A stretch of DNA of 20,767 bases from an uncultured bacterium (GTDB lineage Bacteria > Hydrogenedentota > Hydrogenedentia > Hydrogenedentales > JAEUWI01), in assembly GCA_963977445.1 (NCBI GenBank), contig CAXBPH010000109.1, forward strand, positions 1-20,767, in the 5' to 3' direction. Position numbers and translations under genes: made by a program. Shown piece after piece: positions 1,415 through 19,257 of the stretch. The notes below the pieces were generated by a model, which ran no database searches, was not told the DNA's origin, and saw nothing but the letters and a program-made list of their open reading frames with translations. Each line of letters opens with the position of its first letter. The first letter of the stretch is position 1.

Positions 1415-3036
1415 ATGTTATGGAGCACCTGGAGGCCCTGGCGACCTATAATGGTCCCTGGAAGGCCCTCCGTGAAGAAGCGCCCCGGCTGCAGGAGCGC
1501 GTAACCGAATTACGTGCCCGTGAGACGCGCCTCGATGATGTGTTGGTGGTGGCCCTGGTGGGCGGCTCCGGCGTGGGAAAATCCACGTTGTTGAATGCTA
1601 TCGCCGGGGACCAGATCGCCCTGACCTCGGCCATGCGCCCCTGCACCACCAAGCCCCGGGCTTATCATCCCCCGGGAACGGAACTGCCCTTTCACGAGTG
1701 GGAGGGCGTGCCCCGATCGGCCCTGGAGCACCTCGTGCTCATTGATACGCCCGATTCCGACAGCATTGCCCATATTCATCGTGAGCGGACCATCGACGTG
1801 CTGAAGCAATGTGATTTGATCGTATTGTGTGCCAGCACGGAAAAGTATCTCGATGAGGCGACCTGGTCGTTGCTCCGTCCACTCCGTGGTCAGCGTGCCA
1901 TGATTTGCGTGGAGACCAAGGCCGGTCCCCATCCATCGGTAAAAGAACACTGGCTGGAACGTCTCAAGGATCAGGGCTTCGAAGTGGGGCCCTATTTCCG
2001 GGTAAACGCGTTGCGCACCCTGGATAGGAAGATGGCGGGCACACCCGCTGGGGATGACGAATACGATGGCCCGGCCTTTGACGAATTTCTCCGTGAAGAA
2101 CTGACGCGGGAGCGTATCGCGCGCATCAAGCGATCCAACGTGGCGGGCCTCCTCCAGAAGGCGACTGGCCAACTGGAAAGCATCGCCGCCGAAATTCGCC
2201 CTTCGCTGAAGACCCTGGAAACCCGCATCACGGAAGCCGACAAGGCCCTGGCACAGGAGACGCTCACGCTGGTGAGTGATCACCTCTTTGCGGAGCCCCA
2301 CCTGTGGACCTACGCCGTGGGGCGGGAAACGAGCATTCGATCCAAAGGCTTTGTGGGGCTGTGTTATCGCATGGTCGACGGCCTGCGGAATCTGCCCATG
2401 CGGCTGCCCGGCTTGCTGACCTGGAAGGGGCTCAAGAACAGCGATGGCCGGAAGGCCGCCGAAATGCTGACCACCGACGATTTGGTCCAGGCTGGCGCAA
2501 CGATGGCACCCGTGCGGGTGTTGGAATTCTACCGTGCCCAACAGAGTGAGCTCGCCCTGGCCTTTGTGCGCGGGGGTATTGATGCCCTGGATAGCCCGGC
2601 GGGCGAAGCGGCCTTTCAGAAAGAATTGGATACCCGGCTGGTGTCCGTCATTAAAGGGCCGGCGCGGGAACGGGTTCAACAAGGTGCCCGACGTCTGAGC
2701 CGGTGGTTGACGACGGTGGTGCTCGACGCGCCGCCCGTGGCCTTCCTCGTTTACACCGCTTACCTCGTGGTGACGAACTACCTGCATGCCCGCTTTCTCG
2801 ATATTGGCTTTCTCGTCCACTCGGCGGCTGTTTTGTCCATCATAACCGCCGTGGAACTCGTGGGTTTGTCCTTCGCCATTCGGAGTGTGGCCTGGATGGC
2901 GCGCCAGGGAAGTCTGCAGGATCTTCGCGTGGCTTTTCTCGCTCCTCGCCTCGCCTTTCAGCAAGAAAAAGTGGCCCTGTCCGACGTGAAGGAAAATCTG
3001 GAACGCATCGAAGCGGTAAAGGCCATGGTGCTGTAG
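1396..3036 (+). CDS. Dynamin-like/TRAFAC GTPase (50S ribosome-binding GTPase-type domain) with two C-terminal TM helices
   Basis: G1 GGSGVGKST, G2 RPCTT and G3-like LIDTPDSDS are present, then a helical stalk and two hydrophobic segments (PPVAFLVYTAYLVV; FLVHSAAVLSIITAVELVGLSFAI). The GTG start overlaps the upstream gene by 19 nt; ATG at 1420 is an alternative. Confidence 0.8.
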   Translation: MSESIINVMEHLEALATYNGPWKALREEAPRLQERVTELRARETRLDDVLVVALVGGSGVGKSTLLNAIAGDQIALTSAMRPCTTKPRAYHPPGTELPFHEWEGVPRSALEHLVLIDTPDSDSIAHIHRERTIDVLKQCDLIVLCASTEKYLDEATWSLLRPLRGQRAMICVETKAGPHPSVKEHWLERLKDQGFEVGPYFRVNALRTLDRKMAGTPAGDDEYDGPAFDEFLREELTRERIARIKRSNVAGLLQKATGQLESIAAEIRPSLKTLETRITEADKALAQETLTLVSDHLFAEPHLWTYAVGRETSIRSKGFVGLCYRMVDGLRNLPMRLPGLLTWKGLKNSDGRKAAEMLTTDDLVQAGATMAPVRVLEFYRAQQSELALAFVRGGIDALDSPAGEAAFQKELDTRLVSVIKGPARERVQQGARRLSRWLTTVVLDAPPVAFLVYTAYLVVTNYLHARFLDIGFLVHSAAVLSIITAVELVGLSFAIRSVAWMARQGSLQDLRVAFLAPRLAFQQEKVALSDVKENLERIEAVKAMVL

Positions 3037-3967: not shown

Positions 3968-4846
3968 TCAGGCCACGCCGCTTGCCAGATTTGAGAAGAC
4001 CCACCCATAGCCGAGCAGGAGCATGATGGCGGCGAAAATTATGGAGAATCCCGTGGTCAATACCGATTGCAGTATGAGGAAGAGAATTAAATCACCTATG
4101 GGCAGTGAATAATGCCGTCGCAGTACAACGGGTATGGCGAGCCAGCCGAGGACCGGGACCAGGAGCAGGAGACTGATGGTAAAGGCGTATTGCATGACAT
4201 CGAAAATGTTATCGACGACGGTTTCGTAACGGTGATGACGCATGAGCCCGAGGAGCACATACATGGCCACCGCGTTGGCGGCGAAACTTGTTGCCAGGAA
4301 GATAACCAGCACCTGACCGAAGGACAGGGTGTCGCCATCGGTGCGTAGTGAAATGCCCGTCGAGGGCCCCGCACCGGGTGCATAGTAAATGAAGGCACCT
4401 GTGGCGATGAGAAAAGTCAGGATCAGGGCGGTGGCACCGATGCCATAGAGAAGGACCCGGGCGGAACCCCGTTGGGCAGGCAGGGGCGTCTGGTTGTCCG
4501 GGTTCTGCATCAGCATGGCGATGAGGCGGTGGTCGTCGTGGGTGAGATTGCGAGCGCCACTGGCGGAGATAAGGGGGGCCTCGACCCGGTCTTCGCCGGC
4601 AAAGCGATTGAGAATCAGTTCGGCACGTTCGTCTTGAAAACGCTCGATGAGTTGCTCGCACAGGGCGATGGATTCCTGAGCACGGCCCAGCTGCTCCAGA
4701 CACAGTGCGGCTGAATACATGATATGCTTCTGGCGCGGAAACTCTCGATTGAGCCGTTGCAGAATGTGCAGTGCGGCGTCATACTGACCACGTACGTAGA
4801 GAGTGTCGGCTTGCCGGAAGTGTTGCTTAGCTTCCGAGGTGTCCAA
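3968..4846 (-). CDS. TPR-containing polytopic membrane protein
   Basis: N-terminal TPR (FRQADTLYVRGQYDAALHILQRLNREFP...) followed by about four hydrophobic segments. The TTG start is preceded by purine-rich GGGGAAGAGACGGA. Confidence 0.75.
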   Translation of the reverse strand: MDTSEAKQHFRQADTLYVRGQYDAALHILQRLNREFPRQKHIMYSAALCLEQLGRAQESIALCEQLIERFQDERAELILNRFAGEDRVEAPLISASGARNLTHDDHRLIAMLMQNPDNQTPLPAQRGSARVLLYGIGATALILTFLIATGAFIYYAPGAGPSTGISLRTDGDTLSFGQVLVIFLATSFAANAVAMYVLLGLMRHHRYETVVDNIFDVMQYAFTISLLLLVPVLGWLAIPVVLRRHYSLPIGDLILFLILQSVLTTGFSIIFAAIMLLLGYGWVFSNLASGVA

Positions 4847-4960
4847 TGCGGTGTCCGTCTCTTCCCCAAGTCCCGATTGTAAGGCGTATTCTAGCGCGGT
4901 TGCTGTGGCTAACCCAAGAAATTTGGACGGCTATGGGAAAAAAAGAACCGGCAAGGCCCT

Positions 4961-7900
4961 TCAGTCCTCGGGCACGGGGCCAAAACCACCGCCACCGGGC
5001 GTCTCGATGATGACCCAATCTCCCGTCTCTATCTCCAATTGACAATGGCCGGGAAGGGGCGCTTTTTTACCGCCGTGGATGTGCCAGTTTTGTCCAGGGA
5101 GGCCGGGCTGACCCCCCTGGACCCCGTAGGCCTGGGTGAAGCGTCGTTCCATGAGGCACGAGAGGGTCAGGGGTTGGCGAAATTCAAAGGCCCGATGAAG
5201 GCCTTCCCCGCCATGGGTGGTGCCCTTGCCGCCGGAGCCCTGCCGAAGTGCGAAGGCCCGCAAGATGACGGGATAGCGTCGTTCCAGGACTTCCGGGTCG
5301 GTAATGCGGGTGTTGGTCATGTGACTGTGGACACCCGATGCGCCGGGGAAATCCGGACCGGCTCCCGTCCCACCGCCCATGGTTTCATAGTAGCCGAAGG
5401 TCGCGTCGCCGAAGCTCAGGTTGTTCATCGTGCCTTGGCTCCCGGCGAGGTTGCCGAGGGCCCCATAGAGGGCTTCGCAAATGCGCTGTGACGTTTCCAC
5501 GTTGCCGCCCACGACGGCGGCGGGCGGCCTGGGTGCCAGGAGAGAACCCGGCGGAATGATGACGATAATGGGATCCAGGCAGCCGCTGTTCAGCGGTATG
5601 GGCTTGCCCACGAGGGTCCGGAACACATAGAGCACCGCCGAGAGTACCACAGCACTTGGTGCATTCAGGTTGCCCTCGAGTTGCGCTGCCGTGCCCGCAA
5701 AGTCCACCGTTGCCCGTCGATCCGCAATGGTGATGGTGCAGCAAATGGGCGCGCCACTGTCCAGGCGTTCTTCCGCGTGGTAGGTGCCATCGGGAAGGCC
5801 GGCGATGCAATCGCCCATGGTGTCGGCGGCGTTTTGACGCACGTGGTGCATATAGGCCTGAACCACGGCGACCGAATAGTTAACACACAGTTCCAGCAAG
5901 AGCGAGACGCCGAGCACATTGGCGGCTATCTGGGCGCGAAAATCGCTCATACGCTCCTCGATATTTCGGGCAGGCCACTCTCCCTGCTGCAGGGCCGCAC
6001 GCAATGGCCCTTCCCGGAAGGTGCCGCCACTGACGAGGAGAAAATTGTGGAATCGAAGACCCTCCTCATCGATGCTGCGCGAGAAGGGAGGCATAGAGCC
6101 CGGTACGATGCCGCCAATGTCGGCGTGGTGACCGCGATTGGCGACGAAGAAGATGCATTCTCCGGTTTCTGAAAAGACCGGCGTGACCACCGTCATATCG
6201 GGCAGATGGGAGCCGCCATGGAAGGGGTCGTTGGTGAGATACACATCACCGGGTTGGAGGGTGTCGCCTCGATCCCGCACGATGGCTTTCACGCTCTCGC
6301 CCATGGCACCCAGGTGCACGGGGATGTGGGGGGCATTGGCCACGAGGGCACCGTCGGGACCGAAGAGGGCGCAGGAAAAATCCAATCGTTCCTTGATGTT
6401 CGCCGAGTGGCTGACCCGTTCTAGGCACTGGCCCATTTGTTCGGCCACTGACATGAACAAATTGTTGAAGACTTCCAGCAAGACGGGGTTCGCCTCGGTG
6501 GCCACCCGCTCCCGTGTGACGGTGTGCTGGTGGGAAAGAATCAGATTGTGGTATTGGTCCATGCGCGCGGTCCAGCCGGGATCGACGACGATGGTGGAGC
6601 CTTCTTCCACGATGAAGGCCGGGCCGGTGAGTTGGTGGCCCGGCTGCAGGGCGCTTCTCGGGTAGACGGGCGTTTCCAGGGGGCACCGCTTTCGTTCCCC
6701 ATTCGGCTGGATACTGTCAAAATGGACAACAACCTGCCCGGTGCGCAGGGTTTCCAGGGGTGCCGTTGCCCTGTTCATGCGCTCCGATGATGGGGCGAGA
6801 TCATCGGTGGCCGAAGACCCTTCTGCCATGATGCGGAGGTTAACCACCTCAATGGGCTTCTCGGCCATGGTGAAGCCGTAGCGTTGTTGGTGGCGGGCCG
6901 CAAAGGCTTCGCTCAGATCGGTGTCCGGGTCCCAGTCGACTTCGATGCACCCTTCTACGCCTTCGTATCGCAATTCCACGTGGCGAGCAATTTGAATGGA
7001 CGTTGCCCCGTCCTGTTCGAGTACGGCCTGGCAGGCCTGGGTCAATCGCGCAAAGCCCGATTCGATCTGATTGCGGAGCGCCGGTTCCCATCGTGCCAGT
7101 ATGGGCGCGGACTCCCCATGGGTCAGTCGGGCGAGTCCCATGCCGTAGGCGCTCAAGACGCCCGCCCAGGGATGGAGCACAATGTCCTGAATGCCCAGTG
7201 CCTCGGCGATGGCGCAGGCGTGTTGGGCACCGGCACCACCAAAGCAGCACAAGGCATATTCCTGGACGTCATAGCCGCGCGCCACGCTGACGACTTTGAT
7301 AGGTTTCACCATGCGCTCGTTGGCGATGCGGATGAAACCGGCGGCGGCTTCTTCCACCGCCACGGTCCGGCCCAGCGCCTTGCTCATTGCGTCGCTGAGT
7401 GCCTGGAGGCGCTGAAAGGCGGCCTCGGTATCGAGGCCCTCGTCGGCCCGGGGGCCAAAGCATCGGGGGAAATAGGCGGGCTGGATACGGCCCAATACGA
7501 GGTTGGCGTCGGTCACCGTTGCGGGGCCGCCCTTGCCATAGCAGGCCGGACCCGGTTGGGCACCGGCACTCTCCGGGCCGACCATACAGCGATGTCCGTC
7601 GAAGGTCAGAATGGAACCACCACCAGCGGCGACCGTCTCAATCCACAACATGGGGGCTTTTATGCGAATCCCGGCAACGTTTTTTTCGTAGACAAAATCG
7701 CTGCCATCGTCGACACGACTCACATCGGTGGAGGTGCCCCCCATATCGAAGCCAATAACCTTTGGAAAACCTGCTTCCCGGCAGACGGCGGCACACGCCA
7801 CCACACCCCCCGCGGGCCCCGACAATATGGCGTCTTTGCCGGAGAATCGTTGGGCATCCGCGAGGCCGCCGTTGGATTGCATGAAATGGAGGCGGGTCTG

Positions 7901-8611
7901 GCTACCCAGTGCCGCCCGGGCCCGTGCCACATAGTCGCGAATTACTGGCGTGAGATAGGCATCCGCCACCGTCGTATCGCCCCGTCCCACGACTTTAATC
8001 TCGTTGGCGACTTCGTGACTCAGGCTTATCTGGGAAAAGCCCGCCTCTCGGGCCAGTTCACCCAGCCGAAGTTCATGACGGGCATCGACATAGCTATTGA
8101 GTAAAACCACGGCCAGACTGTCGATGCCCTGGGTGCGAAGGGCCTCAAGAGATTTTCGGGCCGCCGTTTCATCCATCGCCCGATCAATGGTGCTATCACT
8201 GAGGATGCGCTCCCGGATTTCTATGGTTTCGAGGGCCAGGTACTCGGGCAGTTCGATTTTCACGGCGAAGAGGTCGGGTCGGTCCTGGTACCCGATGCGG
8301 AGCAGGTCGCGGAAGCCCTCGGTCACCAGGAGAGCGACGGGTGCTCCTTGTCGTTCCAGCAGGGCGTTGGTGGCGAGGGTGGTGCCCATGCGGACTTCAT
8401 GAATCTGGTCGGGCGGTATGGCGCTTCCAGAGGGCACGCCGAGGAGGGTCCGGATGGCATGGAGCGGTGCGTCGTCGTAGTGATCCGGGTTTACGCTGAG
8501 GAGTTTGCGGAGATGGAGCCGCCCCGCCGGGTCACGGGCCACGATATCGGTGAAGGTGCCGCCCCGATCAATCCAGAAATCCCAGCCGGGTCGGGATAGG
8601 GTAGTGGACAC
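4961..8611 (-). CDS. Fused hydantoinase A/B / ATP-dependent 5-oxoprolinase family protein (OPLAH/Oxp1-type)
   Basis: A-half motifs: [64 protein letters not shown]-half motifs: [60 protein letters not shown] moved the start from 8656 to GTG at 8611, which follows the RBS AGGAG at 9 nt spacing. Confidence 0.93.
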
Positions 8612-8657
8612 GGTGAAAAGCTCCTGCAAGTGACAATCAGCGGTAAATGGAAGCACA

Positions 8658-8860: not shown

Positions 8861-8889
8861 TTGACACGTATGTCCCGTTGGAGTATTAT
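8861..8889 (+). promoter_or_regulatory. Near-consensus sigma70 promoter upstream of the polysaccharide-export operon
   Basis: TTGACA (8861-8866), 17-nt spacer, TATTAT (8884-8889). Confidence 0.75.
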
Positions 8890-9151: not shown

Positions 9152-10177
9152 ATGCGCATGGATGGAACGCAAACGTACTTACGGCAGTTGGGTTTGACGG
9201 AGCAGCCCTTTGCTCCGACAGCAGACCCAGTCTATTTCTATGCCACACGAGGCCACAAAGAGTGCCTTTTTCGCCTCTGGAATGCGGTAGACGCAAGCCA
9301 TGGTATCGCGGTCGTTCTTGGCAACTACGGCACCGGAAAGACCACCCTCCTCCGCAAACTCATGACCGGCATGGCGGCCGACCCCGAGCGGTATTTGACG
9401 GCGGTCATTGGTTCGCCCATTCCTTCGTGGACCAGTTTTGCCCTCCTCGAAAGCATTGTGGCCCAGTTTGGGTTGCGTCCCCACGAACAATCTTTCGTGG
9501 CCTACATGGAAGCGCTCAATCAACATCTGCTCGACAATCGTGGTCGAATTTGCACCCTGATTATTGACGATGCACAGAATCTGAATAAGCGTGGACAGCT
9601 TGAATTGCTCCGCCTCGTTCAAAACCTCGAAACCCAGCAGCAGAAACTACTTAACCTGGTTTTCTTTGCCCAGTTGGAGTGGATTCAGGTATTGCAGGCG
9701 GCCCCCAATTTTGAACAGCGTATCAACCTGACCTGCACCTTAGAATCTATCCAATTTGACGAAGCCCAGCAATTTATTGAGTTCCGACTTCGTCAGGCGG
9801 GCGCCCAGCCGGGTACCGGGCCGGTCTTCGATGAAGGGGCCCTCCGTGCGATCCATGCTTATGCCGAAGGCAGCCCCCGGGTCATGGTTACCTTGTGCCG
9901 AAATTCGCTCTTAATGGCCGCTCAGCTAAAGACGCGGCAGATAACACACGATATAGTTGTACATACGATCGAAAAGACCACCCTTCCGGACCCCGAAAAA
10001 CGCGCGCGGGTTGCGGCGGCGGTGAGTAGCGCTGTCCGACCACCAGCACCCGTCGTGCCTGCGGTGGGCGGTGGTAATCGCGAACGTAATTTGCGGGAAC
10101 AACAGACTCGGGATCAGCGTGCAGCTGATTTACTGTTGCGGTCCGCTCGAATCCGACAGGGTCAGGAATTGGGCTGA
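9152..10177 (+). CDS. ExeA/GspA-family AAA ATPase (general secretion pathway protein A-like), without a TM or peptidoglycan-binding extension
   Basis: N-terminal YLRQLGLTEQPFAPTADPVYFY matches the ExeA Y..fGL...PF...PDP..fy pattern. Walker A GNYGTGKTT, Walker B LIIDDAQNL, ELLRLVQNLE, QRI, FIEFRLRQAG and GSPR are present. ATG at 9158 is an alternative start. Confidence 0.88.
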   Translation: MRMDGTQTYLRQLGLTEQPFAPTADPVYFYATRGHKECLFRLWNAVDASHGIAVVLGNYGTGKTTLLRKLMTGMAADPERYLTAVIGSPIPSWTSFALLESIVAQFGLRPHEQSFVAYMEALNQHLLDNRGRICTLIIDDAQNLNKRGQLELLRLVQNLETQQQKLLNLVFFAQLEWIQVLQAAPNFEQRINLTCTLESIQFDEAQQFIEFRLRQAGAQPGTGPVFDEGALRAIHAYAEGSPRVMVTLCRNSLLMAAQLKTRQITHDIVVHTIEKTTLPDPEKRARVAAAVSSAVRPPAPVVPAVGGGNRERNLREQQTRDQRAADLLLRSARIRQGQELG

Positions 10178-10179
10178 AC

Positions 10180-12240
10180 ATGTCACCAAATGCGGAAAAG
10201 GATCAAGACAGCCACCCGGAAGAGGGCGATCTCCACTTGGAGCAGCCGTTGGATTCCATCGAAGGCAACCTTATGGCCGAAATGCCCACGGACGATCGCT
10301 TTGAAAGCGGCGTACCCGAAGGGCAACGCGCCAATTCCCTGGATTTTATTCAGATGACGGGTCTTACCCGTGCACCGCTCCGCAATGCCTCTGCCGAATC
10401 GATTTCTGAGACCGAGGTTAACGACGATGATCTGAACCCGACGGCGCCGTTGAGTTTTTATGAAAAGGGTGTCACCGATGTGGATGATGGTGACGGCGGT
10501 GACCGCGACGGGCTTTCCGATATGGCCCTGGACGCGAGTCTGATTCCAGAGCGTGGTTCAGACACCCTTCGGAGTGTCCGTGCGTCGTCATCGATAGACG
10601 CGTTTCGCGATATTGTGGCGGGACTCGAAGCGGGCACAGAGAAATTCGAACCGCCGGTACCGTCCTACCCCGAGCCCGAACTTAATGACGTGGTGGAAGC
10701 GGTGCCGGAGAGTTTTGGGGAAGAGCGCTCCGCCTCGTCTGATTTACTGGCCATGTTGGATGCCCTGGACGCCGCCGCGAAACACGCTGATTCGACAGAC
10801 GGTCTTCCTGAAGCGCAGGCCTATGATATGCCCGAGCAGCTAGATGATGAGGACTTGCCTGCCCTTGCAGCACCCATAGATGAACCCGCTCCGGTGGATA
10901 GTGAGGCAATGGTAGATGATTGGGACACCCTCTTTGAATCGGTAACACCCGGTGAGTCGTCGGTAAGTCCTGTTGCCCCAGCGCCTGCTCGCGCGCCCAG
11001 TGCCAGTGGTGCCTTGGCGGAAGCGGAGCAGTTGATGCAATCCCTGGGCCGTGTCAGCAACGACAAGGGTCCCTCCGAAACACCCAAACCGACACCAGTG
11101 CCGGTTCCGAGTCTCTTGCCCACCTATTCCAACACCGTGGCGACGGTGGCCGAGCTCGACGGAGAGCTGGCCTACGACTACAGCGCGGCCCCGACACGTC
11201 GGCGCTCCAAGCGCCACTCCCGAGCCGTCCGTCGTGGTCGAAGGGCGCTCAAGATTATTGTAGCGCTGGTGGTGATTCTGGGCGGGCTTGGCACACTCAT
11301 GATGAAAATTGTTTTGCCTGCGTGGGAAAAGGCCGAAGGCCTGGAGTCCAAGGCAAGCCGATTCATGAATGAAGGCAAGTACGTGGAAGCATCCGACGCC
11401 TACAAGGCCCTCTCCAGGAAACTGGTCGGGGACCCCACCGGCCAGGCCGACGCTCAGTTTAAGGCGGCTTATGTCTTGACCTTGGGTGAGCCCCGCACCG
11501 GCAACGAACGGGACAAGCGGTATCGGTCTGCACTTGAGCAGTTCCAAGCCTTTGTTGATAGCAATCCCCAGCACCCGAAACGTACGCGCGCCCTGACAAT
11601 TATGGGACGCTTGTACTATGAGTTACACGATTACGACGAAGCCATCGACTTGCTCCGCGATCAGGTTGAGCCCCGCCAAGATCCGCAGGCTGCCCTGACG
11701 ATGTTGCGCTATCTGGCCCGGTCTTACAACATGAAGTCGGACTATGAAGCGGCGGAAAGTGCCTATCTGCGTGCCGTTGGTGTGGAAGGAAGTTATGGCG
11801 TTGACCAGGATTATTCCAGCCTGGGCGAAATGTTCAAAGCGCGCGCGGACCTTGCTGTAAACAGTGAGGCTGACAAAGAGCTGTTCATCGAAAAGGCAAA
11901 AAACTACTGGCAACTTGCGATGCAAGTTCCCGGTATAGACCCGGCGCGGAAAGTGGCCTTGCGGGAGAGTCTGAACTGGCTTGATAGCGCGGGCCAGGTT
12001 CCTGCCGACCCAGCGGCCACCGAAGGTATAACGGATTTGGCGGTAGAGACACTGCCGATGGAAACGCCTGACGTTGTTGCAGAGCCCACCCTGCCCGAGC
12101 CGGAGAACCTTCCCACGGAAGGCACGCAGGAAGAGAATCCGAATGCAGAATTGAACGCGGTGCTGGACGTATCGAATGCGTCCATGCTGAGCGGGGAAAC
12201 GGCCCAGGATTCTTCTGCGCCCCCGGTTGAAAACGAATAG
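10180..12240 (+). CDS. Bitopic membrane protein: long acidic low-complexity N-terminus, one TM helix, C-terminal TPR domain
   Basis: The first ~340 aa are Asp/Glu/Pro-rich. A basic patch RRRSKRHSRAVRRGRRALK (11197-11253) precedes the TM IIVALVVILGGLGTLMMKIVL. TPR-like helices follow (ALEQFQAFVDSNPQHPKRTRALTIMGRLYYELHDYDEAIDLL; LRYLARSYNMKSDYEAAESAYLRA). It starts 2 nt after the ATPase stop. Confidence 0.8.
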   Translation: MSPNAEKDQDSHPEEGDLHLEQPLDSIEGNLMAEMPTDDRFESGVPEGQRANSLDFIQMTGLTRAPLRNASAESISETEVNDDDLNPTAPLSFYEKGVTDVDDGDGGDRDGLSDMALDASLIPERGSDTLRSVRASSSIDAFRDIVAGLEAGTEKFEPPVPSYPEPELNDVVEAVPESFGEERSASSDLLAMLDALDAAAKHADSTDGLPEAQAYDMPEQLDDEDLPALAAPIDEPAPVDSEAMVDDWDTLFESVTPGESSVSPVAPAPARAPSASGALAEAEQLMQSLGRVSNDKGPSETPKPTPVPVPSLLPTYSNTVATVAELDGELAYDYSAAPTRRRSKRHSRAVRRGRRALKIIVALVVILGGLGTLMMKIVLPAWEKAEGLESKASRFMNEGKYVEASDAYKALSRKLVGDPTGQADAQFKAAYVLTLGEPRTGNERDKRYRSALEQFQAFVDSNPQHPKRTRALTIMGRLYYELHDYDEAIDLLRDQVEPRQDPQAALTMLRYLARSYNMKSDYEAAESAYLRAVGVEGSYGVDQDYSSLGEMFKARADLAVNSEADKELFIEKAKNYWQLAMQVPGIDPARKVALRESLNWLDSAGQVPADPAATEGITDLAVETLPMETPDVVAEPTLPEPENLPTEGTQEENPNAELNAVLDVSNASMLSGETAQDSSAPPVENE

Positions 12241-12306
12241 TCCAGCGAACAGAGCGAAAAGATTTGGCGTTGAGCCAACGTAAATAAACCAGGTGGAGTG
12301 GAAACT

Positions 12307-13788
12307 ATGCCATCCCAGATTAGAGTATTCATTCGTGCGTGCCTCGTGGCGACCTTCGCCATCTGCTCCGCATCGTTATATGCCGAAGAAGACATGTCGG
12401 GCGAGGCGCTGAAGCCGGGCGATTTGGTCTTTGTGAATGTGCACCGTCAGCCCGAGCTTTCCACCACGACCCAGCTGGATAGTCAGGGCAATGTGGAAAT
12501 GCCCTATATCGGCAATGTTTCCCTGAAGGGATTGAATCTGGGCGACGCCGGTGCGCGGGTATCGATGGGGCTGAAGAGCGTGCTCAAGAATCCCCGGGTT
12601 ACCGTCACTCGCAGCGTCGAGGGTATGGGGGCGCTTCCCGGCGGCTTCATGCGCACCCAATCGATGCAGACCCAGGTCGTGCCGCTGAACAATTCGGATG
12701 CAGGCACCTTGGAAAAAGCCTTGTCCGGTATGTCCACGGCTGGCGGTAGTGTCAGCTATGATCCGAATACGAACAGTCTGATCCTGACGGATGAGCCACC
12801 CGTCCTGCAGAATATGTTGTCAGTAATTCGCGAGCTGGACCAGATGGAATCCCAGATAACGCAGGTGCTCATCGAGGCCAAGATTGTAGAAGTGGAAACG
12901 GCCGCCGCCAAAGAATTGGGTGTGCGCTGGTTTGCCCAGGGCGACCACGTGGGTACGGGCTATACGCCGCCCCCGCGGCAGGATGCCTTGTTGAATTCTA
13001 TCCGTCAATCGGTGGGGCCGAGTTACAACGAGTCCCTTGATTCCGGCGCCCGCGGCGGCGGTATCAGTCGGCGTTTCGTTGACAATACCCGGTTTGATCG
13101 TCGATTGCAGGTCCCGGTCCAATTGGCCGCGCCCGGCCAGATGTTCCTGGGTTACATGAACAGTGGCATCGATCTGGGCGTTATGCTGGATGCCCTCGTG
13201 GCCGACGACAAGGCCGAATTGCTGGCCTCCCCCTATGTGGGGACTATCAATCACAAGGCGGCCACCATCCGTATGACCGAGGAATTTCCGTATTCCGAAG
13301 TTGGCTCGGCCGGATTATCTACGGTGGTAAATGTAAACTTTCTGGATATTGGTATCGTCCTCGAGGTCGTGCCGCATGTGCGCCGCGATCCCTCCGGAGA
13401 ACGGTATGTATTGGTAGAGCTCGCACCGGAAGTCTCCACGGCAGTTGGCGTGTCCAATGGTGTGCCCGTGCGGGCCGTGCGGAGCAGCAATAGTCAGCGA
13501 ATTGTACGCGATGGCCAATCCCTTGTTATCGGCGGCATTGTCATGGCCGACAACCATACGGTGATTCAGAAGCTTCCCGGACTCGGTAATCTTCCCATCT
13601 TTGGCAATCTCTTCAAGCATAAAGAACAGAGCCGCAGCAGTCGCGAATTGATGATCTTTGTTACGCCCACGATTCACGACCGGCCAGAAGATATTCGATG
13701 GGAACGTAGCCTCGAAATGGACGGATTTGGTCACAACGATGCCTTTCTTGCTGCGCTCGAATCCCGTGCAGAAGTACGGAAGGACTAG
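12307..13788 (+). CDS. Fusion of a polysaccharide biosynthesis/export (Wza D1, Poly_export) domain with a type II/IV secretin (Secretin_N + Secretin)
   Basis: Signal peptide (..SASLYA/EE). Poly_export signature LKPGDLVFVNV..PELS....LDSQGNVEMPYIGNVSLKGLNL...LKNPRVTV (~12409-12612). N3/NolW-like TQVVPLNNSDA..SVSYDPNTNSLILTD..IRELD (~12670-12843). Secretin core QVLIEAKIVEV...ELGVRW...LLASP...DIGIVLEVVPHV...VRDGQSLVIGG...KLPGLGNLPIFGNLFK...RELMIFVTPTI. ATG 12307 has GGAG 8 nt upstream and is preferred over GTG 12298. Confidence 0.88.
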   Translation: MPSQIRVFIRACLVATFAICSASLYAEEDMSGEALKPGDLVFVNVHRQPELSTTTQLDSQGNVEMPYIGNVSLKGLNLGDAGARVSMGLKSVLKNPRVTVTRSVEGMGALPGGFMRTQSMQTQVVPLNNSDAGTLEKALSGMSTAGGSVSYDPNTNSLILTDEPPVLQNMLSVIRELDQMESQITQVLIEAKIVEVETAAAKELGVRWFAQGDHVGTGYTPPPRQDALLNSIRQSVGPSYNESLDSGARGGGISRRFVDNTRFDRRLQVPVQLAAPGQMFLGYMNSGIDLGVMLDALVADDKAELLASPYVGTINHKAATIRMTEEFPYSEVGSAGLSTVVNVNFLDIGIVLEVVPHVRRDPSGERYVLVELAPEVSTAVGVSNGVPVRAVRSSNSQRIVRDGQSLVIGGIVMADNHTVIQKLPGLGNLPIFGNLFKHKEQSRSSRELMIFVTPTIHDRPEDIRWERSLEMDGFGHNDAFLAALESRAEVRKD

Positions 13789-13791
13789 CCT

Positions 13792-16047
13792 ATGTCCAGC
13801 ATTGATGCACCCGTTCTAGAAGAGACCACGCGGGAAAACCAGGACAACCAGTTTCGTTTTTTGTGGAATGTGGTGTCGGAGCGTTGGATCCTCCTGGTGA
13901 TCGGTACCCTGTTGGGGGCCATCTCTTTTGGGGGCATCACGTGGCTGAACCAGACGACCACGCCCACCCGTTACAACAGTCTCGGCACGTTGGTCATCTC
14001 CCAAGGTCGCACGGCATTCGTCCAATCTCTCAATACAACGGCGAGTGCGTCCCTGTATGAAATGACGGCCGAAAAGCTCGTCAATGGCACCCGGGCTACC
14101 TTGCTCGCAGAAGAAGTTGCCAAGGCACTTATACAAAAAGATATTGCCACCGGCGGTAAATACAGTAGTGTGGCCACCCCGGAAGAATTTCGCGCCCAGG
14201 TGAACCGTATCGAAAGCAGAATCAACATGGTGGCCCTGGATCCCCAGAATATAGAGATCCGAGTCCAGGGGTGTGAAACGGCACACGAAGCCACCGATAT
14301 TGCCGAATATGCGACACGGGCCTTCCTTAAGCTGAACCAGCAGGTTCATTTTGAATTGGCCAGCCAGAACCACAATGACGCCCTGGCGATGATCAAGCTA
14401 CTTCGCGATGACCTTACCGAGGCCGAAAAGGCCCGCTTGGCGTTCTTGTCTAAGCACGGCTTTCGGGCATACCAGGATATTGATGATCTGATGACCAGCA
14501 AGGAAAATACCTTGCGGGAAATCGAATCCACCAAAGAAATCACTCAGCAGAATCTCGCCAAGCTGGATGCGGAACTCGCTCAAGCTCGGGAGCAGTTCTC
14601 CGATTCACTGGATCAGCCCAGCGATACGATGATCAAGGGGCTGCTCACTGATCTGGACAAGCTTACACAAGAGCAGTTCACCCTGAGCGCCGTTTATCAG
14701 CCGGGCTGGCCGCGCCTTCTCGAGTTGGAAGAAGAGATTGCCGAAACGACGGGCCTTATTCGCAGGGCGGAAGGACAGCTTAGTTCCGGTGCTTTGGGTG
14801 GCAGTGATATCTGGACGCGGCGCAACGAAATTTACCGCCAGCAGAAAGAATATCACCAGCAGTTGGCGAGTCTCGAAGCGCGGGAAGAATCTATAAAAAA
14901 ACAACAGGAAGAATTGCTTCCACGGGTGCCCGAGCTGGCCAATATCAAGTTGGATGCGGAGCGGCTCAAACGGGAAGTGGACGCCATCGAAGACCGGTTG
15001 AATCAGGCTTCGAATCGCGAAATGGAGATTCGTGCTGCCATCGAGCGTGGACTAGGGTCCGTCGAGCGCAAAGATTCCATTGCGGCCGCTATCCCTATTT
15101 CATCCCAGAGTGGTAAAGAGAAATGGGTGAATTTTGCCATTGGCGCGATCATCGGATTTGTAGTTACCTTCGGGTTTGCTATGGTCACCGAATATAACGA
15201 TACCTCTATTCGCAGTATCGAAGACGTAAACGAGTACATTGGCCTCGAAGTGATCGGTACCATACCCCGGATGCGCTTTGGTCGACCACGGGGTGGTCGA
15301 CGACGAAGGGCGACTTACGTGAGCACGGTGGACGAGGAGCAGATTGACTCCTGTATCGTGACGCAGCATGATCCCAAGTCTCCTATTTCAGAAGCCTATC
15401 GTACCTTACGTACGAACTATCAATTCGCGACCATTAAGCAAAAGCCCAAAACGGTCATGGTGACCAGTGCGGTGCCCGGCGAAGGCAAGACGACGACGGC
15501 CGTGAATCTGGCCGTGACGATGGCTGATCGCGGAATGCGCGTGCTAATTGTCGATACCGACTTGCGGCGCCCTAATGTGCACCGCGTGTTGCGTATGGAA
15601 CGTGGTCCGGGCCTCGCAGACGTATTGCGGGAAGGTCTGGATCCCAAGAGTGTAATTCGGCCCACCCGCATTGAAAACCTCTGGATTATTTCCAGTGGGC
15701 GGGTTCCGCCGAATCCATCCGAATTAATCGGCTCAGACCACATGGCCGAGTTAATGGGCCAGTTGGGCGATGAGTTTGACCTGGTTATCTGCGATGCGCC
15801 TTCTGTACTCGTTGTGACGGACCCGGTTCTTCTTGCCACCCATGTGGATACCTGCATGATGGTGGTCTCCACCAACAACGCACGTCGCGAAACCGTCATC
15901 CGCGCGAAAAAACTGCTGACGACCGCTCAGGTCTCGGTGGCTGGTGTCGTGGTGAATGGTCTGGAAACTACCCGACGCCACTACTACTACTATTATTACT
16001 ACTACGATGACGGCTCTTCGGGACGCCGCAAGTGGTATCACTTCTAG
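13792..16047 (+). CDS. wzc: Polysaccharide co-polymerase / bacterial tyrosine autokinase (Wzc, PCP-2a)
   Basis: TM1 WILLVIGTLLGAISFGGITWL, a long coiled-coil periplasmic region and TM2 FAIGAIIGFVVTFGFAMV. Kinase motifs: PKSPISEAYRTLRTN, Walker A SAVPGEGKTT, A' IVDTDLRRP, PPNPSELI, Walker B VICDAPS, and a C-terminal Tyr cluster HYYYYYYYYDD. Confidence 0.93.
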   Translation: MSSIDAPVLEETTRENQDNQFRFLWNVVSERWILLVIGTLLGAISFGGITWLNQTTTPTRYNSLGTLVISQGRTAFVQSLNTTASASLYEMTAEKLVNGTRATLLAEEVAKALIQKDIATGGKYSSVATPEEFRAQVNRIESRINMVALDPQNIEIRVQGCETAHEATDIAEYATRAFLKLNQQVHFELASQNHNDALAMIKLLRDDLTEAEKARLAFLSKHGFRAYQDIDDLMTSKENTLREIESTKEITQQNLAKLDAELAQAREQFSDSLDQPSDTMIKGLLTDLDKLTQEQFTLSAVYQPGWPRLLELEEEIAETTGLIRRAEGQLSSGALGGSDIWTRRNEIYRQQKEYHQQLASLEAREESIKKQQEELLPRVPELANIKLDAERLKREVDAIEDRLNQASNREMEIRAAIERGLGSVERKDSIAAAIPISSQSGKEKWVNFAIGAIIGFVVTFGFAMVTEYNDTSIRSIEDVNEYIGLEVIGTIPRMRFGRPRGGRRRRATYVSTVDEEQIDSCIVTQHDPKSPISEAYRTLRTNYQFATIKQKPKTVMVTSAVPGEGKTTTAVNLAVTMADRGMRVLIVDTDLRRPNVHRVLRMERGPGLADVLREGLDPKSVIRPTRIENLWIISSGRVPPNPSELIGSDHMAELMGQLGDEFDLVICDAPSVLVVTDPVLLATHVDTCMMVVSTNNARRETVIRAKKLLTTAQVSVAGVVVNGLETTRRHYYYYYYYYDDGSSGRRKWYHF

Positions 16048-16097
16048 AATCCCGCCAGGAGTTCTCACGGTCCCGACGTAGCGGGTAAGGGAAGCAC

Positions 16098-17615
16098 ATG
16101 TCATTCTTCCGCTCAGAACGCGGTATCGGTCGTGGTGAAGTTGCCGAGAGCCAGCTGGAAGTCCCTATCTTCGCGGTCTTCATGCTTGTTTGCAGCATGA
16201 TACTGGTTGCGCAGCACCTCCTTTTGGAAAACGATAGCCTTACCGCCGCGCTTTCCATCAGTATGGTCGTGTTCGGGGGCACCGTAGTGCGCGTTGAGTT
16301 CGGCCTGTTTGTGTTGCTTATCGCCATGTTGCTGTCGCCAGAGATCGAACTACGTGCCGGGGTTAACGGGGACCGCAGTCTGAACATCCGCTACGATGAT
16401 ATCCTGATCATCGTTATTTTTCTCGGCGTCATGGTCAAACTCGTATTCGAGGGGCGTTTGATGCTCTGGCAGCCCAGCCCCATCAACGCTGGCATCGTGG
16501 CCTACTATGCGGTCTGTATCTTTGCCACCTTGCTGGCCTACGAGCGCAGTCTGCCTGCCTGGGACAAGCGGACCGCTTTCTTTGTCATGTTGAAGATGCT
16601 GGAGTTCTACCTGATATTCTTCATGGTGGCCCACTCCGTTCGCACGTCGAAAGATATTCGAACGCCTCTGGCACTATTTTTTGTCGTCATGTTGATTGTG
16701 AGCGCCTACGGCATTTACTCCATTGGAACGACGCCACGGGTGAGTGCGCCCTTTGAAAAAGGGGGTACGGAGCCCAATACCCTGGGCGGCTATCTCGTAA
16801 TTTGCCTCTGTGTGGCCCTCGGGTTGTGTCTCCAGGCCCGACGCTATCGAATAAAACTGATCTATCTCGCCATCGTAGTTCTGGGCACAATCCCCCTGCT
16901 CTATACGCTGTCGCGGGCGTCCTATATCGCGATCATCGTGGGATTTACCGTCATTGGAGTCATGAGTCGAAAATACCTCGTGCTGGTTGCGCTAGCGGCC
17001 ATCCTGTTGAGTTCGACGCTCATTATGCCCACGGAAGTCATTGAACGTGTCGCCTTCACCGTTCAGGAAGAGGGTGGGCGTGATCTGACGGTCGGTGGAC
17101 GAGAGCTTGGTGTTAAGGTGGATAAGTCGACCTACGAGCGGGTACACGTCTGGCGAAAAGTGGGATTTATTCTCAGCCTGGGACCCCAATTCTTTTTGTT
17201 CGGTGGTGGCGTTTCCTGGGAGTCGGTGCTCGACAGTCAATACGCCCGTGTGCTGCTGGAAACCGGTACCGTTGGGCTTCTTGCCTTTGTATTTCTGCTG
17301 TATCAGCTACTGAGAACCACCCGCCAGGCCTATCGGTGGACAGATGACTGGATGGGCCGGGGCATCGCGTTGGGCATGTTTGGGGCCACAGCGGCCCTCG
17401 TGGTTCACTCCTTTGGAACGATTTCATTCCTGATCGTTCGCATCATGGAGCCCTACTGGTTTCTTATTGCCCTGACCGTAACGATTCGCAATGAAGCTAT
17501 CTTCAGGCATCTGCAACGCCACCGCGCCCAACAGCGTATACGGCAACCGAAAATTGTAGAACCCGCCGTTGAAGAACTTCCTCTCGAAGCCGGTGTGGGC
17601 GCTGCCAGCCAATAG
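16098..17615 (+). CDS. O-antigen ligase / Wzy polymerase family (Wzy_C) membrane protein
   Basis: There are ten or more hydrophobic segments. Family-like motifs are EPNTLGGYL, TLSRASYIA, STYERVHVW and FGGG...DSQYARVLLETGTVGL. It lies directly downstream of wzc. Confidence 0.8.
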   Translation: MSFFRSERGIGRGEVAESQLEVPIFAVFMLVCSMILVAQHLLLENDSLTAALSISMVVFGGTVVRVEFGLFVLLIAMLLSPEIELRAGVNGDRSLNIRYDDILIIVIFLGVMVKLVFEGRLMLWQPSPINAGIVAYYAVCIFATLLAYERSLPAWDKRTAFFVMLKMLEFYLIFFMVAHSVRTSKDIRTPLALFFVVMLIVSAYGIYSIGTTPRVSAPFEKGGTEPNTLGGYLVICLCVALGLCLQARRYRIKLIYLAIVVLGTIPLLYTLSRASYIAIIVGFTVIGVMSRKYLVLVALAAILLSSTLIMPTEVIERVAFTVQEEGGRDLTVGGRELGVKVDKSTYERVHVWRKVGFILSLGPQFFLFGGGVSWESVLDSQYARVLLETGTVGLLAFVFLLYQLLRTTRQAYRWTDDWMGRGIALGMFGATAALVVHSFGTISFLIVRIMEPYWFLIALTVTIRNEAIFRHLQRHRAQQRIRQPKIVEPAVEELPLEAGVGAASQ

Positions 17616-17631
17616 GGGGCTACTGCCAACC

Positions 17632-19134
17632 TTAGTGGCCGCGCACGCCTTCGAGACGGGGCACCGCGTAGGTGCCCATGCGTATCTGGTCAAACATGCT
17701 CTTCTCGGTAGCAAATTCCTGTGCCCGTTCCAGACTGATTTGCTTCTGATTGAACAAATTGAAGAGGTAGTGTTCAAAGAGGAAGGAGTGGGAAACAGAC
17801 TGCTGCATCCCAATTCGTATGTGATCCGTGCTGCCTTCCATGATGCCGTCGGCCACGGCCTTTACATCATTGAGCATCATTTCCAGGGCAGGAATGCGGC
17901 CACCACCAATTTTTGGAACCAGGCGCTGGCAAATGACGCATTGCAGGCAATCACGTAACTGCAATTTGACGAGGTCCCGTTCTATCGGGTCGAAGAAACT
18001 GAGCACCCGGTTAACCACCTCCGCCGCCGTGTTGGCGTGGAGGGTGCTGATGACCAAGTGACCCGTGGCGGCCGCATTGATGGCGGAGCGAATTGTATCG
18101 GGGTCACGCATTTCACCAATGAGGATGACATCGGGATCGTGACGCAGGGCACCGGTCACGGCGTGAAAGAACGATTTCACATCCATACCGAGATTCCGCT
18201 GCGAAATGATGGACTTCTTGTTTGAGTGAACGAACTCGATTGGATTTTCGATGGTCAGAATATGGCTGGAGCGGGTGGTGTTGATCCAGTCAATCAACGC
18301 GGCCACCGTGGTGGTCTTTCCGCTCCCTGTCATGCCCGTAACGAGCAACAGACCCCGGTGTAACTCCGCCAGCTTTACCATGGTGTCCGTGGGTACGTGG
18401 AGCTCTTCAAAGCTCGGCACCGTTTCCGGAAGATAGCGAAAGGTACAGTGGGGCGCGCCTGATTTTATGAAGGCCGAGACTCTGGAATAGCCCAGGCCCG
18501 CCTGGTGATAATTGAAACTCGTCTGCTTGTCCGCGATGAATTCGTTCCAGGCATCATCGAGGGAGATTTCCTTAATCAGGGAGAGAATCTGCACCGCTGA
18601 AAGGGGACCCATAATATCGGCTGGTCGGGTTTCCCCATCGATTCGAAACACGGGGCGCACCCCGGGCGAAAGGTGCACATCACTGGCGCGGTATTGGATC
18701 ATGGCCTTAAACAACAGCTCAGCGCTGATGTGATCGAGGCGATATTTACCCCCTTCCGCGCGCCAGACTTCGGGAATGGGCATGGCCTTCGCAAAGGTGT
18801 CGAAGGCCTCCATTGCGGCATGGGCGGTGTCGGGGGAGGTGGGCGCAAAGGTGTAAAACACGCAACCTTCTTCCACATGGCTGGTGCCGTGGGGCGAGAG
18901 GGTCGCAATCGATGCGTCGAGAGCGTCTCGCTCGGGCCATGTCTCGGGCACGCGAATCAAGAAATGATCAAAGGGGCCTTCGAATTCGGAGCGCTCGGCT
19001 TCCAGATGGAGGTCCTCGTTCCAGGCAGTAATGCGCCGGGGAACCCCTTCCGTTCGGAGAAGATGTTTCTCCAGAAGTCCTATAACACCACGAAACGATT
19101 GTTGGGCACCGGTACCCATAAGAAAAACAGCCAC
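17632..19134 (-). CDS. pilT: PilT/PilU-family type IV pilus retraction-type ATPase with an N-terminal extension
   Basis: ASDVHLSPGVRPVFRIDG, Walker A GMTGSGKTT, Asp box TIENPIEFVH, ALRHDPDVILIGEMRD, His box TGHLVISTLH, VICQRLVP and GRIPALE. I moved the start from 19233 to GTG 19134, where the RBS GGAGAGAGGT lies 6 nt upstream; ATG 19119 is an alternative. Confidence 0.88.
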   Translation of the reverse strand: MAVFLMGTGAQQSFRGVIGLLEKHLLRTEGVPRRITAWNEDLHLEAERSEFEGPFDHFLIRVPETWPERDALDASIATLSPHGTSHVEEGCVFYTFAPTSPDTAHAAMEAFDTFAKAMPIPEVWRAEGGKYRLDHISAELLFKAMIQYRASDVHLSPGVRPVFRIDGETRPADIMGPLSAVQILSLIKEISLDDAWNEFIADKQTSFNYHQAGLGYSRVSAFIKSGAPHCTFRYLPETVPSFEELHVPTDTMVKLAELHRGLLLVTGMTGSGKTTTVAALIDWINTTRSSHILTIENPIEFVHSNKKSIISQRNLGMDVKSFFHAVTGALRHDPDVILIGEMRDPDTIRSAINAAATGHLVISTLHANTAAEVVNRVLSFFDPIERDLVKLQLRDCLQCVICQRLVPKIGGGRIPALEMMLNDVKAVADGIMEGSTDHIRIGMQQSVSHSFLFEHYLFNLFNQKQISLERAQEFATEKSMFDQIRMGTYAVPRLEGVRGH

Positions 19135-19187
19135 GACAATACCTCTCTCCAGAGATTGACCAGTCTGTAATGTAAAAACTCTTCGCC

Positions 19188-19216
19188 ATGGTACGCCATC
19201 CTTGTGTACTATGCAA
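19188..19216 (-). promoter_or_regulatory. Putative sigma70 promoter for the PilT-family gene
   Basis: The minus strand reads TTGCAT-N17-TACCAT, 53 nt upstream of GTG 19134. Confidence 0.5.
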
Positions 19217-19227
19217 ACCCGTTTTTC

Positions 19228-19257
19228 TTGCACCCCAAAAGGGGACTGCCGTATAAT
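19228..19257 (+). promoter_or_regulatory. Putative sigma70 promoter for the aldehyde dehydrogenase
   Basis: TTGCAC (19228-19233)-N18-TATAAT (19252-19257). Confidence 0.55.

Follow-up and report, generated by a model that had tools for sequence, protein, structure and literature searches.

Can the outer-membrane exit of a polysaccharide pathway be built from a secretin? The question is raised by an uninterrupted open reading frame (ORF) of 493 amino acids at 12307..13788 on the forward strand of contig CAXBPH010000109.1, which comes from an uncultured Hydrogenedentota bacterium; the whole stretch analysed, 20,767 nucleotides, is referred to here as the window. Polysaccharides cross the outer membrane either through the helical barrel of Wza or through a short outer-membrane polysaccharide export (OPX) protein that works together with a beta-barrel; secretins are known from textbooks as the route taken by folded proteins, pili, needles and phage. 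The protein encoded here, which we call the fusion, joins a Poly_export domain, equivalent to the D1 domain of Wza, to a secretin, and its gene lies immediately upstream of wzc. The fusion architecture is firmly established by the results that follow, and the protein would appear to represent a further OPX solution, one built from a secretin, whose function we infer.

The ORF extends from an ATG at 12307 to a stop codon at 13786-13788. An in-frame GTG is present upstream at 12298, a Shine-Dalgarno-like run, AGGTGGAG, is located 8-15 nt 5' of the ATG, and homologues start at the position equivalent to ATG 12307. The first 26 residues (12307..12384) resemble a signal sequence, being hydrophobic after Arg7 and Arg11, modelled as a helix over residues 2-24, and variable among relatives (22% mean pairwise identity). 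Lipidation appears unlikely, as Cys20 within this segment is not conserved in an alignment of 25 sequences and there is no conserved lipobox cysteine. There follows the Poly_export or Wza D1 (PES) domain at residues 34-101 (12406..12609; PF02563, 55.7 bits, E 5.9e-15, cut-off 28; 55% mean pairwise identity), and then a linker of variable length, residues 102-121 (12610..12669), with a mean identity of 34% and a predicted local distance difference test (pLDDT) score below 50 at residues 104-113. A single Secretin_N domain of the N3 ring-building type occupies residues 122-183 in one stretch (12670..12855; PF03958, 51.1 bits against a cut-off of 28.2; 56% mean pairwise identity, pLDDT 80-86).

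The secretin barrel begins in the next segment (12856..13191; 45-53% mean identity), which also holds a family-specific insert at approximately residues 221-278; residues 201-298 have no Pfam match in a sub-region scan, and W208, N241, E242, R265 and R266 are invariant despite pLDDT values below 50 around 201-298. No other part of the protein is as well conserved as the secretin core itself, residues 296-456 (13192..13674; 63% mean pairwise identity), which is essentially complete, covering positions 1-167 of the 169 in the PF00263 profile (117.9 bits, E 4.6e-34, cut-off 27.5). What remains is a C-terminal tail of residues 457-493 with the stop codon (13675..13788), in which at least 90% of sequences keep E489 and R491 and a short helix is modelled at 479-488 with low confidence; it has no Pfam match in a sub-region scan and may be S-domain-like. 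All of these features are on the forward strand. No SLBB (PF10531, PF22461), Wza_C, GspD-N0 (PF21305) or STN (PF07660) domain was found in the fusion by Pfam at E <=0.01, nor was a GfcC or AMIN domain, in contrast to the ordinary secretins recovered in the same searches, which do carry N0/STN domains. An earlier note on this DNA had proposed just this order of parts, a signal segment, Poly_export and one N3, then the whole of the secretin core, and neither an SLBB domain nor a Wza C-terminal helix. The proposal has held up in every point examined, with PF02563, PF03958 and PF00263 all scoring above their gathering thresholds on one polypeptide.

The earlier note had also staked its reading on a Wza-type fold for the N-terminal domain, and this is what structure comparison gives. 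In an AlphaFold monomer model built from 25 homologues, the N-domain (pLDDT 72-85) and N3 (80-86) are the better-predicted parts, and the linker and residues 200-300 are poor. When the model was compared with the PDB using Foldseek, secretins came first (GspD 5wq8, E 1.6e-17), and the N-domain matched both the Myxococcus xanthus class-3 OPX protein WzaB (9n9a; E 5.4e-5, root-mean-square deviation (rmsd) 0.9 Å over 71 columns, 34% identity) and Wza (2j58; E 9e-4, rmsd 1.4 Å over 83 columns). Sequence searches against solved structures agree: residues 30-101 match 9n9a, a polysaccharide export protein of 186 amino acids, with a phmmer E of 4.9e-8, GspD and PilQ are found by the C-terminal two thirds at E 1.8e-31 and weaker, and a profile of the fusion family aligns nearly end to end with GspD 5wq7 (E 6.2e-51).

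How, then, should such a protein be classified? All 12 NCBIfam matches to the fusion fall under their curated cut-offs, and thus no curated family covers it: the secretin part scores 176.9 bits with PilQ (cut-off 284.35), 166 with GspD (351.35), 109.8 with SctC (238.45) and 86.1 with MshL (250.2), and the N-domain finds the EpsE, PEP-CTERM export protein and EpsY models. In a published census, Classes 1-3 of OPX proteins all by definition have the layout Poly_export-SLBB(1-n), to which Wza_C or GfcC may be added (PMC9603273). By that definition the fusion, which has no SLBB domain, lies outside all three. It has the Poly_export domain and the pairing with a polysaccharide co-polymerase (PCP) that are typical of OPX proteins and lacks SLBB, Wza_C and GfcC; seen from the other side, it has the core and N3 of the secretin superfamily and lacks both N0 and membership of the GspD, PilQ, MshL, SctC or HofQ subfamilies.

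The architecture is not peculiar to this contig. A search of a 90%-clustered protein collection with the fusion returned 637 matches at E <=1e-5, and 119 of the best 120, at 46-86% identity, have all three domains, the exception (P0025) being a 314-residue fragment from a contig of 1283 nt. Where they have been named, these relatives appear under names such as 'polysaccharide biosynthesis/export family protein [Candidatus Hydrogenedentes bacterium]' or, from the Joint Genome Institute, 'GspD/PulD secretin', 'PilQ' and 'HofQ'. The ESM Atlas cluster that contains the fusion has 57 members, and Hydrogenedentota is the commonest phylum among the 32 for which the phylum is known. Two carriers have other bin labels as recorded, Nitrospirales for the locus L002 and Nitrospiraceae for P0116; although both bins are thus labelled Nitrospirota, the module proteins are 53-61% identical to those of the Hydrogenedentota type, which could reflect mis-binning or lateral transfer.

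When residues 29-215 were used as a HMMER query against 50%-identity representatives, 2277 matches were obtained at E <=1e-3, 15 of them at E <=1e-30, and 30 picked from the best 150 were examined with Pfam. Poly_export followed by Secretin_N is present in 14 of the 30 (12 with the core and two truncated); the others are ordinary OPX proteins with SLBB (11) and ordinary secretins or fragments (five). Among these 14, P0142 and P0148 are members of a second, divergent clade rich in lysine, for which a search with P0148 yielded at least seven three-domain cluster representatives among the 120 matches listed, and which includes Candidatus Ancaeobacter aquaticus of the phylum Candidatus Auribacterota. 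Although only 28-34% identical to the fusion, its members are colinear with it through all domains, including the junction. P0210 was considered as a possible OPX+N3 intermediate and rejected, as Pfam gives only Poly_export and SLBB for it (the match covers query residues 8-184). The same searches turned up OPX proteins in which SLBB is preceded by a tandem of three or four Poly_export domains (P0150, P0266, P0153, P0195, P0223 and P0268), as well as very large proteins with N3-like arrays (P0134, 3491 aa; P0208, 4527 aa; P0273, 3295 aa; P0145; P0158; P0165), which contain 6-12 separate N3-matching stretches and are not normal secretins.

A tree was calculated from N3 and the core alone, with the N-domain excluded, for 83 sequences: 16 of the Hydrogenedentota type, seven second-clade members and a random draw of 60 from the 144 eligible ordinary secretins, all of which our own searches had returned. 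All 23 fused sequences lie on one side of a single branch (SH-aLRT 96, in a quick search without bootstrap), and for this sample a single ancient fusion event is the simplest reading.

The second line of evidence is where the gene sits. Three nucleotides separate its stop codon at 13788 from the start of the next gene at 13792, as the earlier note had stated, and that gene (13792..16047, forward strand) encodes a 751-residue protein which, on its profile matches, is unambiguously a genuine Wzc, a PCP-2a co-polymerase with a bacterial tyrosine kinase domain (TIGR01007, 180.7 bits, cut-off 108.05). It has transmembrane segments near residues 30-52 and 455-475, a Walker A motif GEGKTT and a C-terminal run of eight tyrosines, Y731-Y738, that is invariant in 32 sequences. 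A profile of its family finds Escherichia coli Wzc (7nhr, E 5e-47) and, over the periplasmic part, PslE (E 6e-7). The periplasmic part has no Pfam match of the Wzz or GNVR type, and as a query it retrieves only 56 proteins, all of about 750 residues; a glycine-rich motif within it, G336-W341, is invariant or nearly so.

Directly after wzc, at 16098..17615 on the forward strand, is a gene for a 505-residue polytopic membrane protein of the Wzy/WaaL superfamily. It scores 23 bits with Wzy_C (cut-off 31.7) and 29.3 with TIGR03097 (cut-off 188.1), and its low-confidence model (pLDDT 61.9) resembles first the ligase WaaL (7tpg, E 4.9e-4, TM-scores 0.47/0.56) and then RodA and FtsW of the SEDS family. 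The protein falls into a Wzy/WaaL/SEDS-like group, in which it could be either a polymerase or a ligase.

This arrangement is conserved. A genome scan with secretin-motif patterns gave at least 80 loci, three of which belong to the fused family (L001-L003), the remaining 77 ordinary secretins serving as a control set. L001 is complete, and L002 and L003 are cut inside the 5' end of the fusion gene; the comparison covers these three and the window, all of the Hydrogenedentota type rather than the second clade. Relative to the window, identities in L001 are 64% for an upstream ATPase, 32% for a tetratricopeptide repeat (TPR) protein, 49% for the fusion, 49% for Wzc, 54% for the Wzy-like protein and 57% for a convergent PilT-like protein. 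The order in L002 is fusion, Wzc, Wzy-like and PilT-like, and in L003 it is fusion, Wzc and Wzy-like followed by unrelated genes. The genes wzc and Wzy-like stand directly 3' of the fusion in all three related loci (40-61% identity), and neither of them lies within ~10 kb in any of the 77 ordinary secretin loci. Nor was a Poly_export-like ORF found within ~10 kb of any of these 77 genes with the family hidden Markov model, which does detect generic OPX proteins. The flanks outside the module differ between genomes. In addition, for 17 of the 55 other members of the Wzc family, the longest contig is of exactly the size recorded for a member of the fusion family (65959, 58190 and 90808 being examples), which is indirect evidence that the two kinds of gene share contigs. 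The earlier claim that the gene occupies the wza position beside wzc is therefore sustained, and the linkage of homologues to wzc and wzy, on which the note had made its reading depend, holds in the three related loci.

Taken with the architecture, this context makes it reasonably probable that the fusion serves a polysaccharide pathway of the Wzc/Wzy type as its outer-membrane translocon, the secretin channel standing in place of domains D2-D4 of Wza. In such a pathway, lipid-linked repeat units would be made and flipped by the products of genes beyond the window and joined into a polymer by the Wzy-like protein in concert with oligomeric Wzc. The periplasmic tips of Wzc would touch the D1 domains, which the flexible linker of about 20 residues would tether to the secretin, and the polymer would pass through D1 rings, N3 rings, the secretin vestibule and the gate to the outside. 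The secretin core would supply outer-membrane anchoring, oligomerisation and the pore, tasks for which a short OPX protein has its lipid anchor and partner beta-barrel.

Three observations bear on docking. The N-domain is as well conserved as N3 and far better than the linker that joins them (55% as opposed to 34% mean identity), indicating that it is under selection. In M. xanthus, Arg106-Arg107 of WzaB contacts WzcB, and WzaB stays a monomer unless it is held at the outer membrane by its lipid anchor (PMC12819527). In an ungapped alignment the WzaB contact loop corresponds to S91-N95 of the fusion, with Arg106-Arg107 at K94-N95; all 25 family members have lysine or arginine at position 94, and all 25 have P96, so that the PCP-contact loop appears to be partly kept. 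Because the N-domain is conserved, the equivalent loop of WzaB touches WzcB and K/R94 and P96 are retained, we infer that the N-domain docks on Wzc; the D1 domains might best be pictured as flexible tethers that capture the Wzc tips. Similarly, we read the secretin as anchor, oligomeriser and pore because the fusion has no conserved lipobox and a class-3 OPX protein needs a tether.

Upstream of the fusion are two further genes of the module, both on the forward strand. The first (9152..10177) encodes a 341-residue AAA ATPase of the ExeA/GspA/MshM type (PF13401 AAA_22, E 2.7e-18), whose best NCBIfam match, TIGR03015 'XrtA/PEP-CTERM system-associated ATPase', reaches 151.8 bits against a cut-off of 324.5; we take that family to be homologous to GspA and the MSHA ATPases. 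The second (10180..12240), which starts 2 nt after the ATPase stop codon, encodes a 686-residue bitopic TPR protein with one transmembrane segment at about residues 358-380 and a TPR domain beyond it (Pfam TPR at residues 445-505), a topology read off the translation by eye rather than computed. The first ~350 residues of the TPR protein (10180-11250), before the membrane segment, are acidic, of low complexity, rich in proline and serine and disordered-looking, and its N-terminal 357 residues have no Pfam match. Relatives of the ExeA/GspA-like ATPase and of the TPR protein aid secretin assembly in type II secretion systems (T2SS) and the MSHA pilus. The ATPase is a probable secretin-assembly factor, and together with the membrane-anchored TPR protein it would probably help the secretin multimer to assemble through the cell wall. 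It is tempting to go further and to see here a new class of translocon, a gated secretin dedicated to glycan export, tied to Wzc by a fused Wza D1 and equipped with its own ExeA-like ATPase and TPR assembly factors, to which the boldest version would add the PilT-family ATPase encoded downstream; we would give this larger proposal an even chance.

Several points weigh against an export function. The model of the fusion is of moderate quality overall (pLDDT 65.6, predicted template modelling score 0.36), and the Wzy-like protein falls under its family cut-offs and has a ligase rather than a polymerase as its best fold match. No gene for Wzx, a glycosyltransferase or Wzb was found with Pfam and NCBIfam among the 13 window ORFs, nor among the 11 flank ORFs of L001 and L003; such genes may be elsewhere in the genome. 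There is also a symmetry mismatch, as the solved entries of Wza and Wzc have eight chains and those of secretins 12-15. Secretin gates are opened by a rigid pilus, pseudopilus or needle, and we know of no mechanism by which a flexible glycan would open one. A PilT-family ATPase next to the module in three of four genomes hints at a pilus-like component, and the organisms that carry the fusion family are known from metagenome-assembled genomes only.

The symmetry and gating problems in particular speak against conduction, and could be taken to mean that the secretin ring is a non-conducting scaffold which anchors the Wzc machine to the outer membrane or cell wall while the polymer exits through a separate porin or a Wza encoded elsewhere. 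With only 20.8 kb of the source genome covered there is room for such a gene, and conventional Wza-type OPX proteins do occur in this group: the census table has 27 occurrences of 'Hydrogenedentes', with Class-1 in two rows (PMC9603273). Against a mere anchor, the secretin core is both complete and the most conserved part of the protein, and no porin gene is conserved in the module; no separate beta-barrel porin, second OPX protein, exosortase or pilin was found among the 13 window ORFs. We consider the scaffold unlikely.

A shade less likely again is that the fusion acts as secretin in a machine of the pilus-like or protein-secretion kind, driven by the PilT-family ATPase, in which Poly_export would be just an adaptor, either replacing N0 or binding glycan, and the adjacency of wzc would reflect co-regulation of pili and exopolysaccharide. 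The ATPase gene (17632..19233, reverse strand) is convergent with the module and its product, which has an N-terminal extension of ~170 residues, exceeds the NCBIfam cut-off (TIGR01420, 343.7 bits, cut-off 319.1); the N-terminal 176 residues have no Pfam match and no usable Atlas match. It is convergent with the module in three of the four genomes, namely the window, L001 (10607-12154, reverse strand) and L002 (~4487-6046, reverse strand). Moreover, secretins typically have an ExeA/MshM-like ATPase and a TPR protein as companions, and relatives of the ATPase are found in L001 and near six of the 77 ordinary secretin genes. On the other hand, L003 has wzc and the Wzy-like gene yet no PilT gene, and the N-domain is a genuine, conserved Wza D1. 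A prepilin-type motif had no match in any frame of the window or L001-L003, and there is no platform protein, PilB/GspE-equivalog ATPase or prepilin peptidase among the scanned ORFs; more specifically, no pilin or platform gene was found near the PilT-family ATPase. Whether this ATPase belongs to the module at all is uncertain.

There is a smaller chance still that the module handles a product other than a Wzy polymer, for example a glycan ligated to protein or lipid, as a distant cousin of XrtA/PEP-CTERM loci in which the polytopic protein would act like the ligase WaaL. In NCBIfam, four of the module proteins do indeed have XrtA/PEP-CTERM models as their best matches, and WaaL is the best fold match of the polytopic protein, but every one of the NCBIfam matches is far under its curated cut-off: besides TIGR03015 and TIGR03097 (the latter a 'putative O-glycosylation ligase'), whose scores are given above, they are the TIGR03018 kinase (154.2 bits, cut-off 230.65), the TIGR03007 chain-length determinant (51, cut-off 278.85) and the TIGR03027 export protein (28.3, cut-off 180). 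Furthermore, no exosortase is present among the scanned ORFs, and Wzy and WaaL are inseparable by fold alone. As a locus type, XrtA/PEP-CTERM exopolysaccharide loci share with the module an ExeA-like ATPase, a chain-length determinant/tyrosine kinase, a Poly_export protein and an O-antigen-ligase-like protein, and differ from it in the low scores and in the exosortase, which was not seen in the module; to our knowledge they do not contain a secretin. The module (9152-17615) may nevertheless be a distant cousin of these loci, both having an ExeA-like ATPase. Finally, an assembly chimera or gene-calling artefact joining an OPX gene to a secretin gene can be set aside, since the ORF is uninterrupted and the three domains recur together in relatives from many independent assemblies, in L001 and in the second clade, which is colinear with the fusion over the junction.

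The rest of the window adds little to the argument. A sigma-70-like promoter candidate 5' of the module (8861..8889, forward strand; TTGACA-17-TATTAT, 11 of 12 matches) remains a candidate only, because the scan overall was not above chance (10 sites against 5.9 +/- 2.7 in shuffled sequence). No Rfam family matched the window at the gathering threshold, and hence no riboswitch was found 5' of the module; a tRNA scan was also empty. Divergent from the module across a gap of ~495 nt is a gene (4961-8656, reverse strand) for a 1231-residue hydantoinase/oxoprolinase A+B fusion resembling caprolactamase alpha and beta. Further upstream, on the forward strand, a 452-residue ORF with no family match (56-1414) overlaps by 19 nt the start of a gene for a 546-residue GTPase (1396-3036) with an MMR_HSR1/dynamin-N-like P-loop, and the two may form a unit. 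With respect to the neighbourhood as a whole, the earlier note was right about wzc and left out the ATPase and TPR protein upstream, the PilT-family gene downstream, the missing Wzx and glycosyltransferases and the ambiguity between Wzy and WaaL.

It is instructive to set the fusion, still read as a polysaccharide translocon, beside the systems it resembles. Among OPX proteins, WzaB of the M. xanthus class 3 (WzaB/WzpB, EpsY/EpsX) is the nearest to its N-domain in both sequence and fold. The fusion shares with class 3 the lack of a Wza_C helix, so that the membrane would be crossed by another module, and a gene position beside a PCP-2a Wzc; it differs in having neither an SLBB/D2 domain nor a conserved lipid anchor. 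A lipoprotein anchor is found in most Class 1 and about half of Class 3 OPX proteins (PMC9603273). The class-3 partner is a separate 18-stranded beta-barrel (PMC9603273, PMC12819527), whereas that of the fusion is a covalently joined secretin. E. coli Wza likewise has a D1/PES domain facing Wzc and a gene immediately 5' of wzc, but it is an octamer with two SLBB domains (D2 and D3), a barrel of C-terminal amphipathic helices and a lipoprotein anchor.

Among secretins, GspD, PilQ and MshL have the same complete core and N3, and T2SS and MSHA loci also have an ExeA/GspA/MshM-like ATPase and a TPR protein alongside. The fusion differs from the T2SS and type IV pilus secretins in lacking N0/STN, N1, N2 and AMIN, in forming its own clade, and in its inner-membrane neighbour, which is Wzc rather than GspC or PilP. 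The nearest functional parallel may be the slime 'nozzles': a 2025 paper reports that slime secretion requires the secretins PilQ in filamentous cyanobacteria and GspD in M. xanthus (PMC12475490). Those secretins, too, are proposed carriers of a non-protein polymer, yet they are ordinary PilQ and GspD proteins without a known link to a polysaccharide pathway (PMC12475490); the link of the fusion is in its polypeptide and its operon and is known from sequence alone.

We found no description of a Poly_export-secretin fusion in a full-text literature search, which covered openly available papers rather than subscription-only ones or the InterPro architecture tables, and the earlier note's remark that it knew of no characterised example stands to that extent. 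Neither 'secretin' nor 'PF00263' appears in the available supplementary files of the OPX census (PMC9603273), and the 'secretin' of an Agrobacterium tumefaciens unipolar polysaccharide (UPP) preprint was rejected as a precedent, being a loose name for a Wza-type OPX protein and not PF00263. One phrase of the earlier note does need to be changed: it spoke of a third solution, but three OPX classes and a composite OPX/beta-barrel translocon have already been counted in the literature (PMC9603273), and the secretin fusion would thus be a further one.

If the larger proposal of a new translocon class is correct, secretins would for the first time be linked at sequence level to a defined polysaccharide pathway, and the disputed view that they can carry non-protein polymers would gain support. 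The module, of two to five genes, offers a defined setting in which to test the secretin-slime claim (PMC12475490), and suggests why ExeA-like ATPases recur in exopolysaccharide loci. It will be intriguing to see, in structural terms, how a ring of 12-15-fold symmetry meets an 8-fold Wzc and how a flexible glycan would open a secretin gate. A conserved fusion of OPX D1 and secretin in the wza position argues, as far as gene and protein sequences can, that a secretin is able to serve the Wzy/Wzc pathway, and that some bacteria probably export polysaccharide through one.

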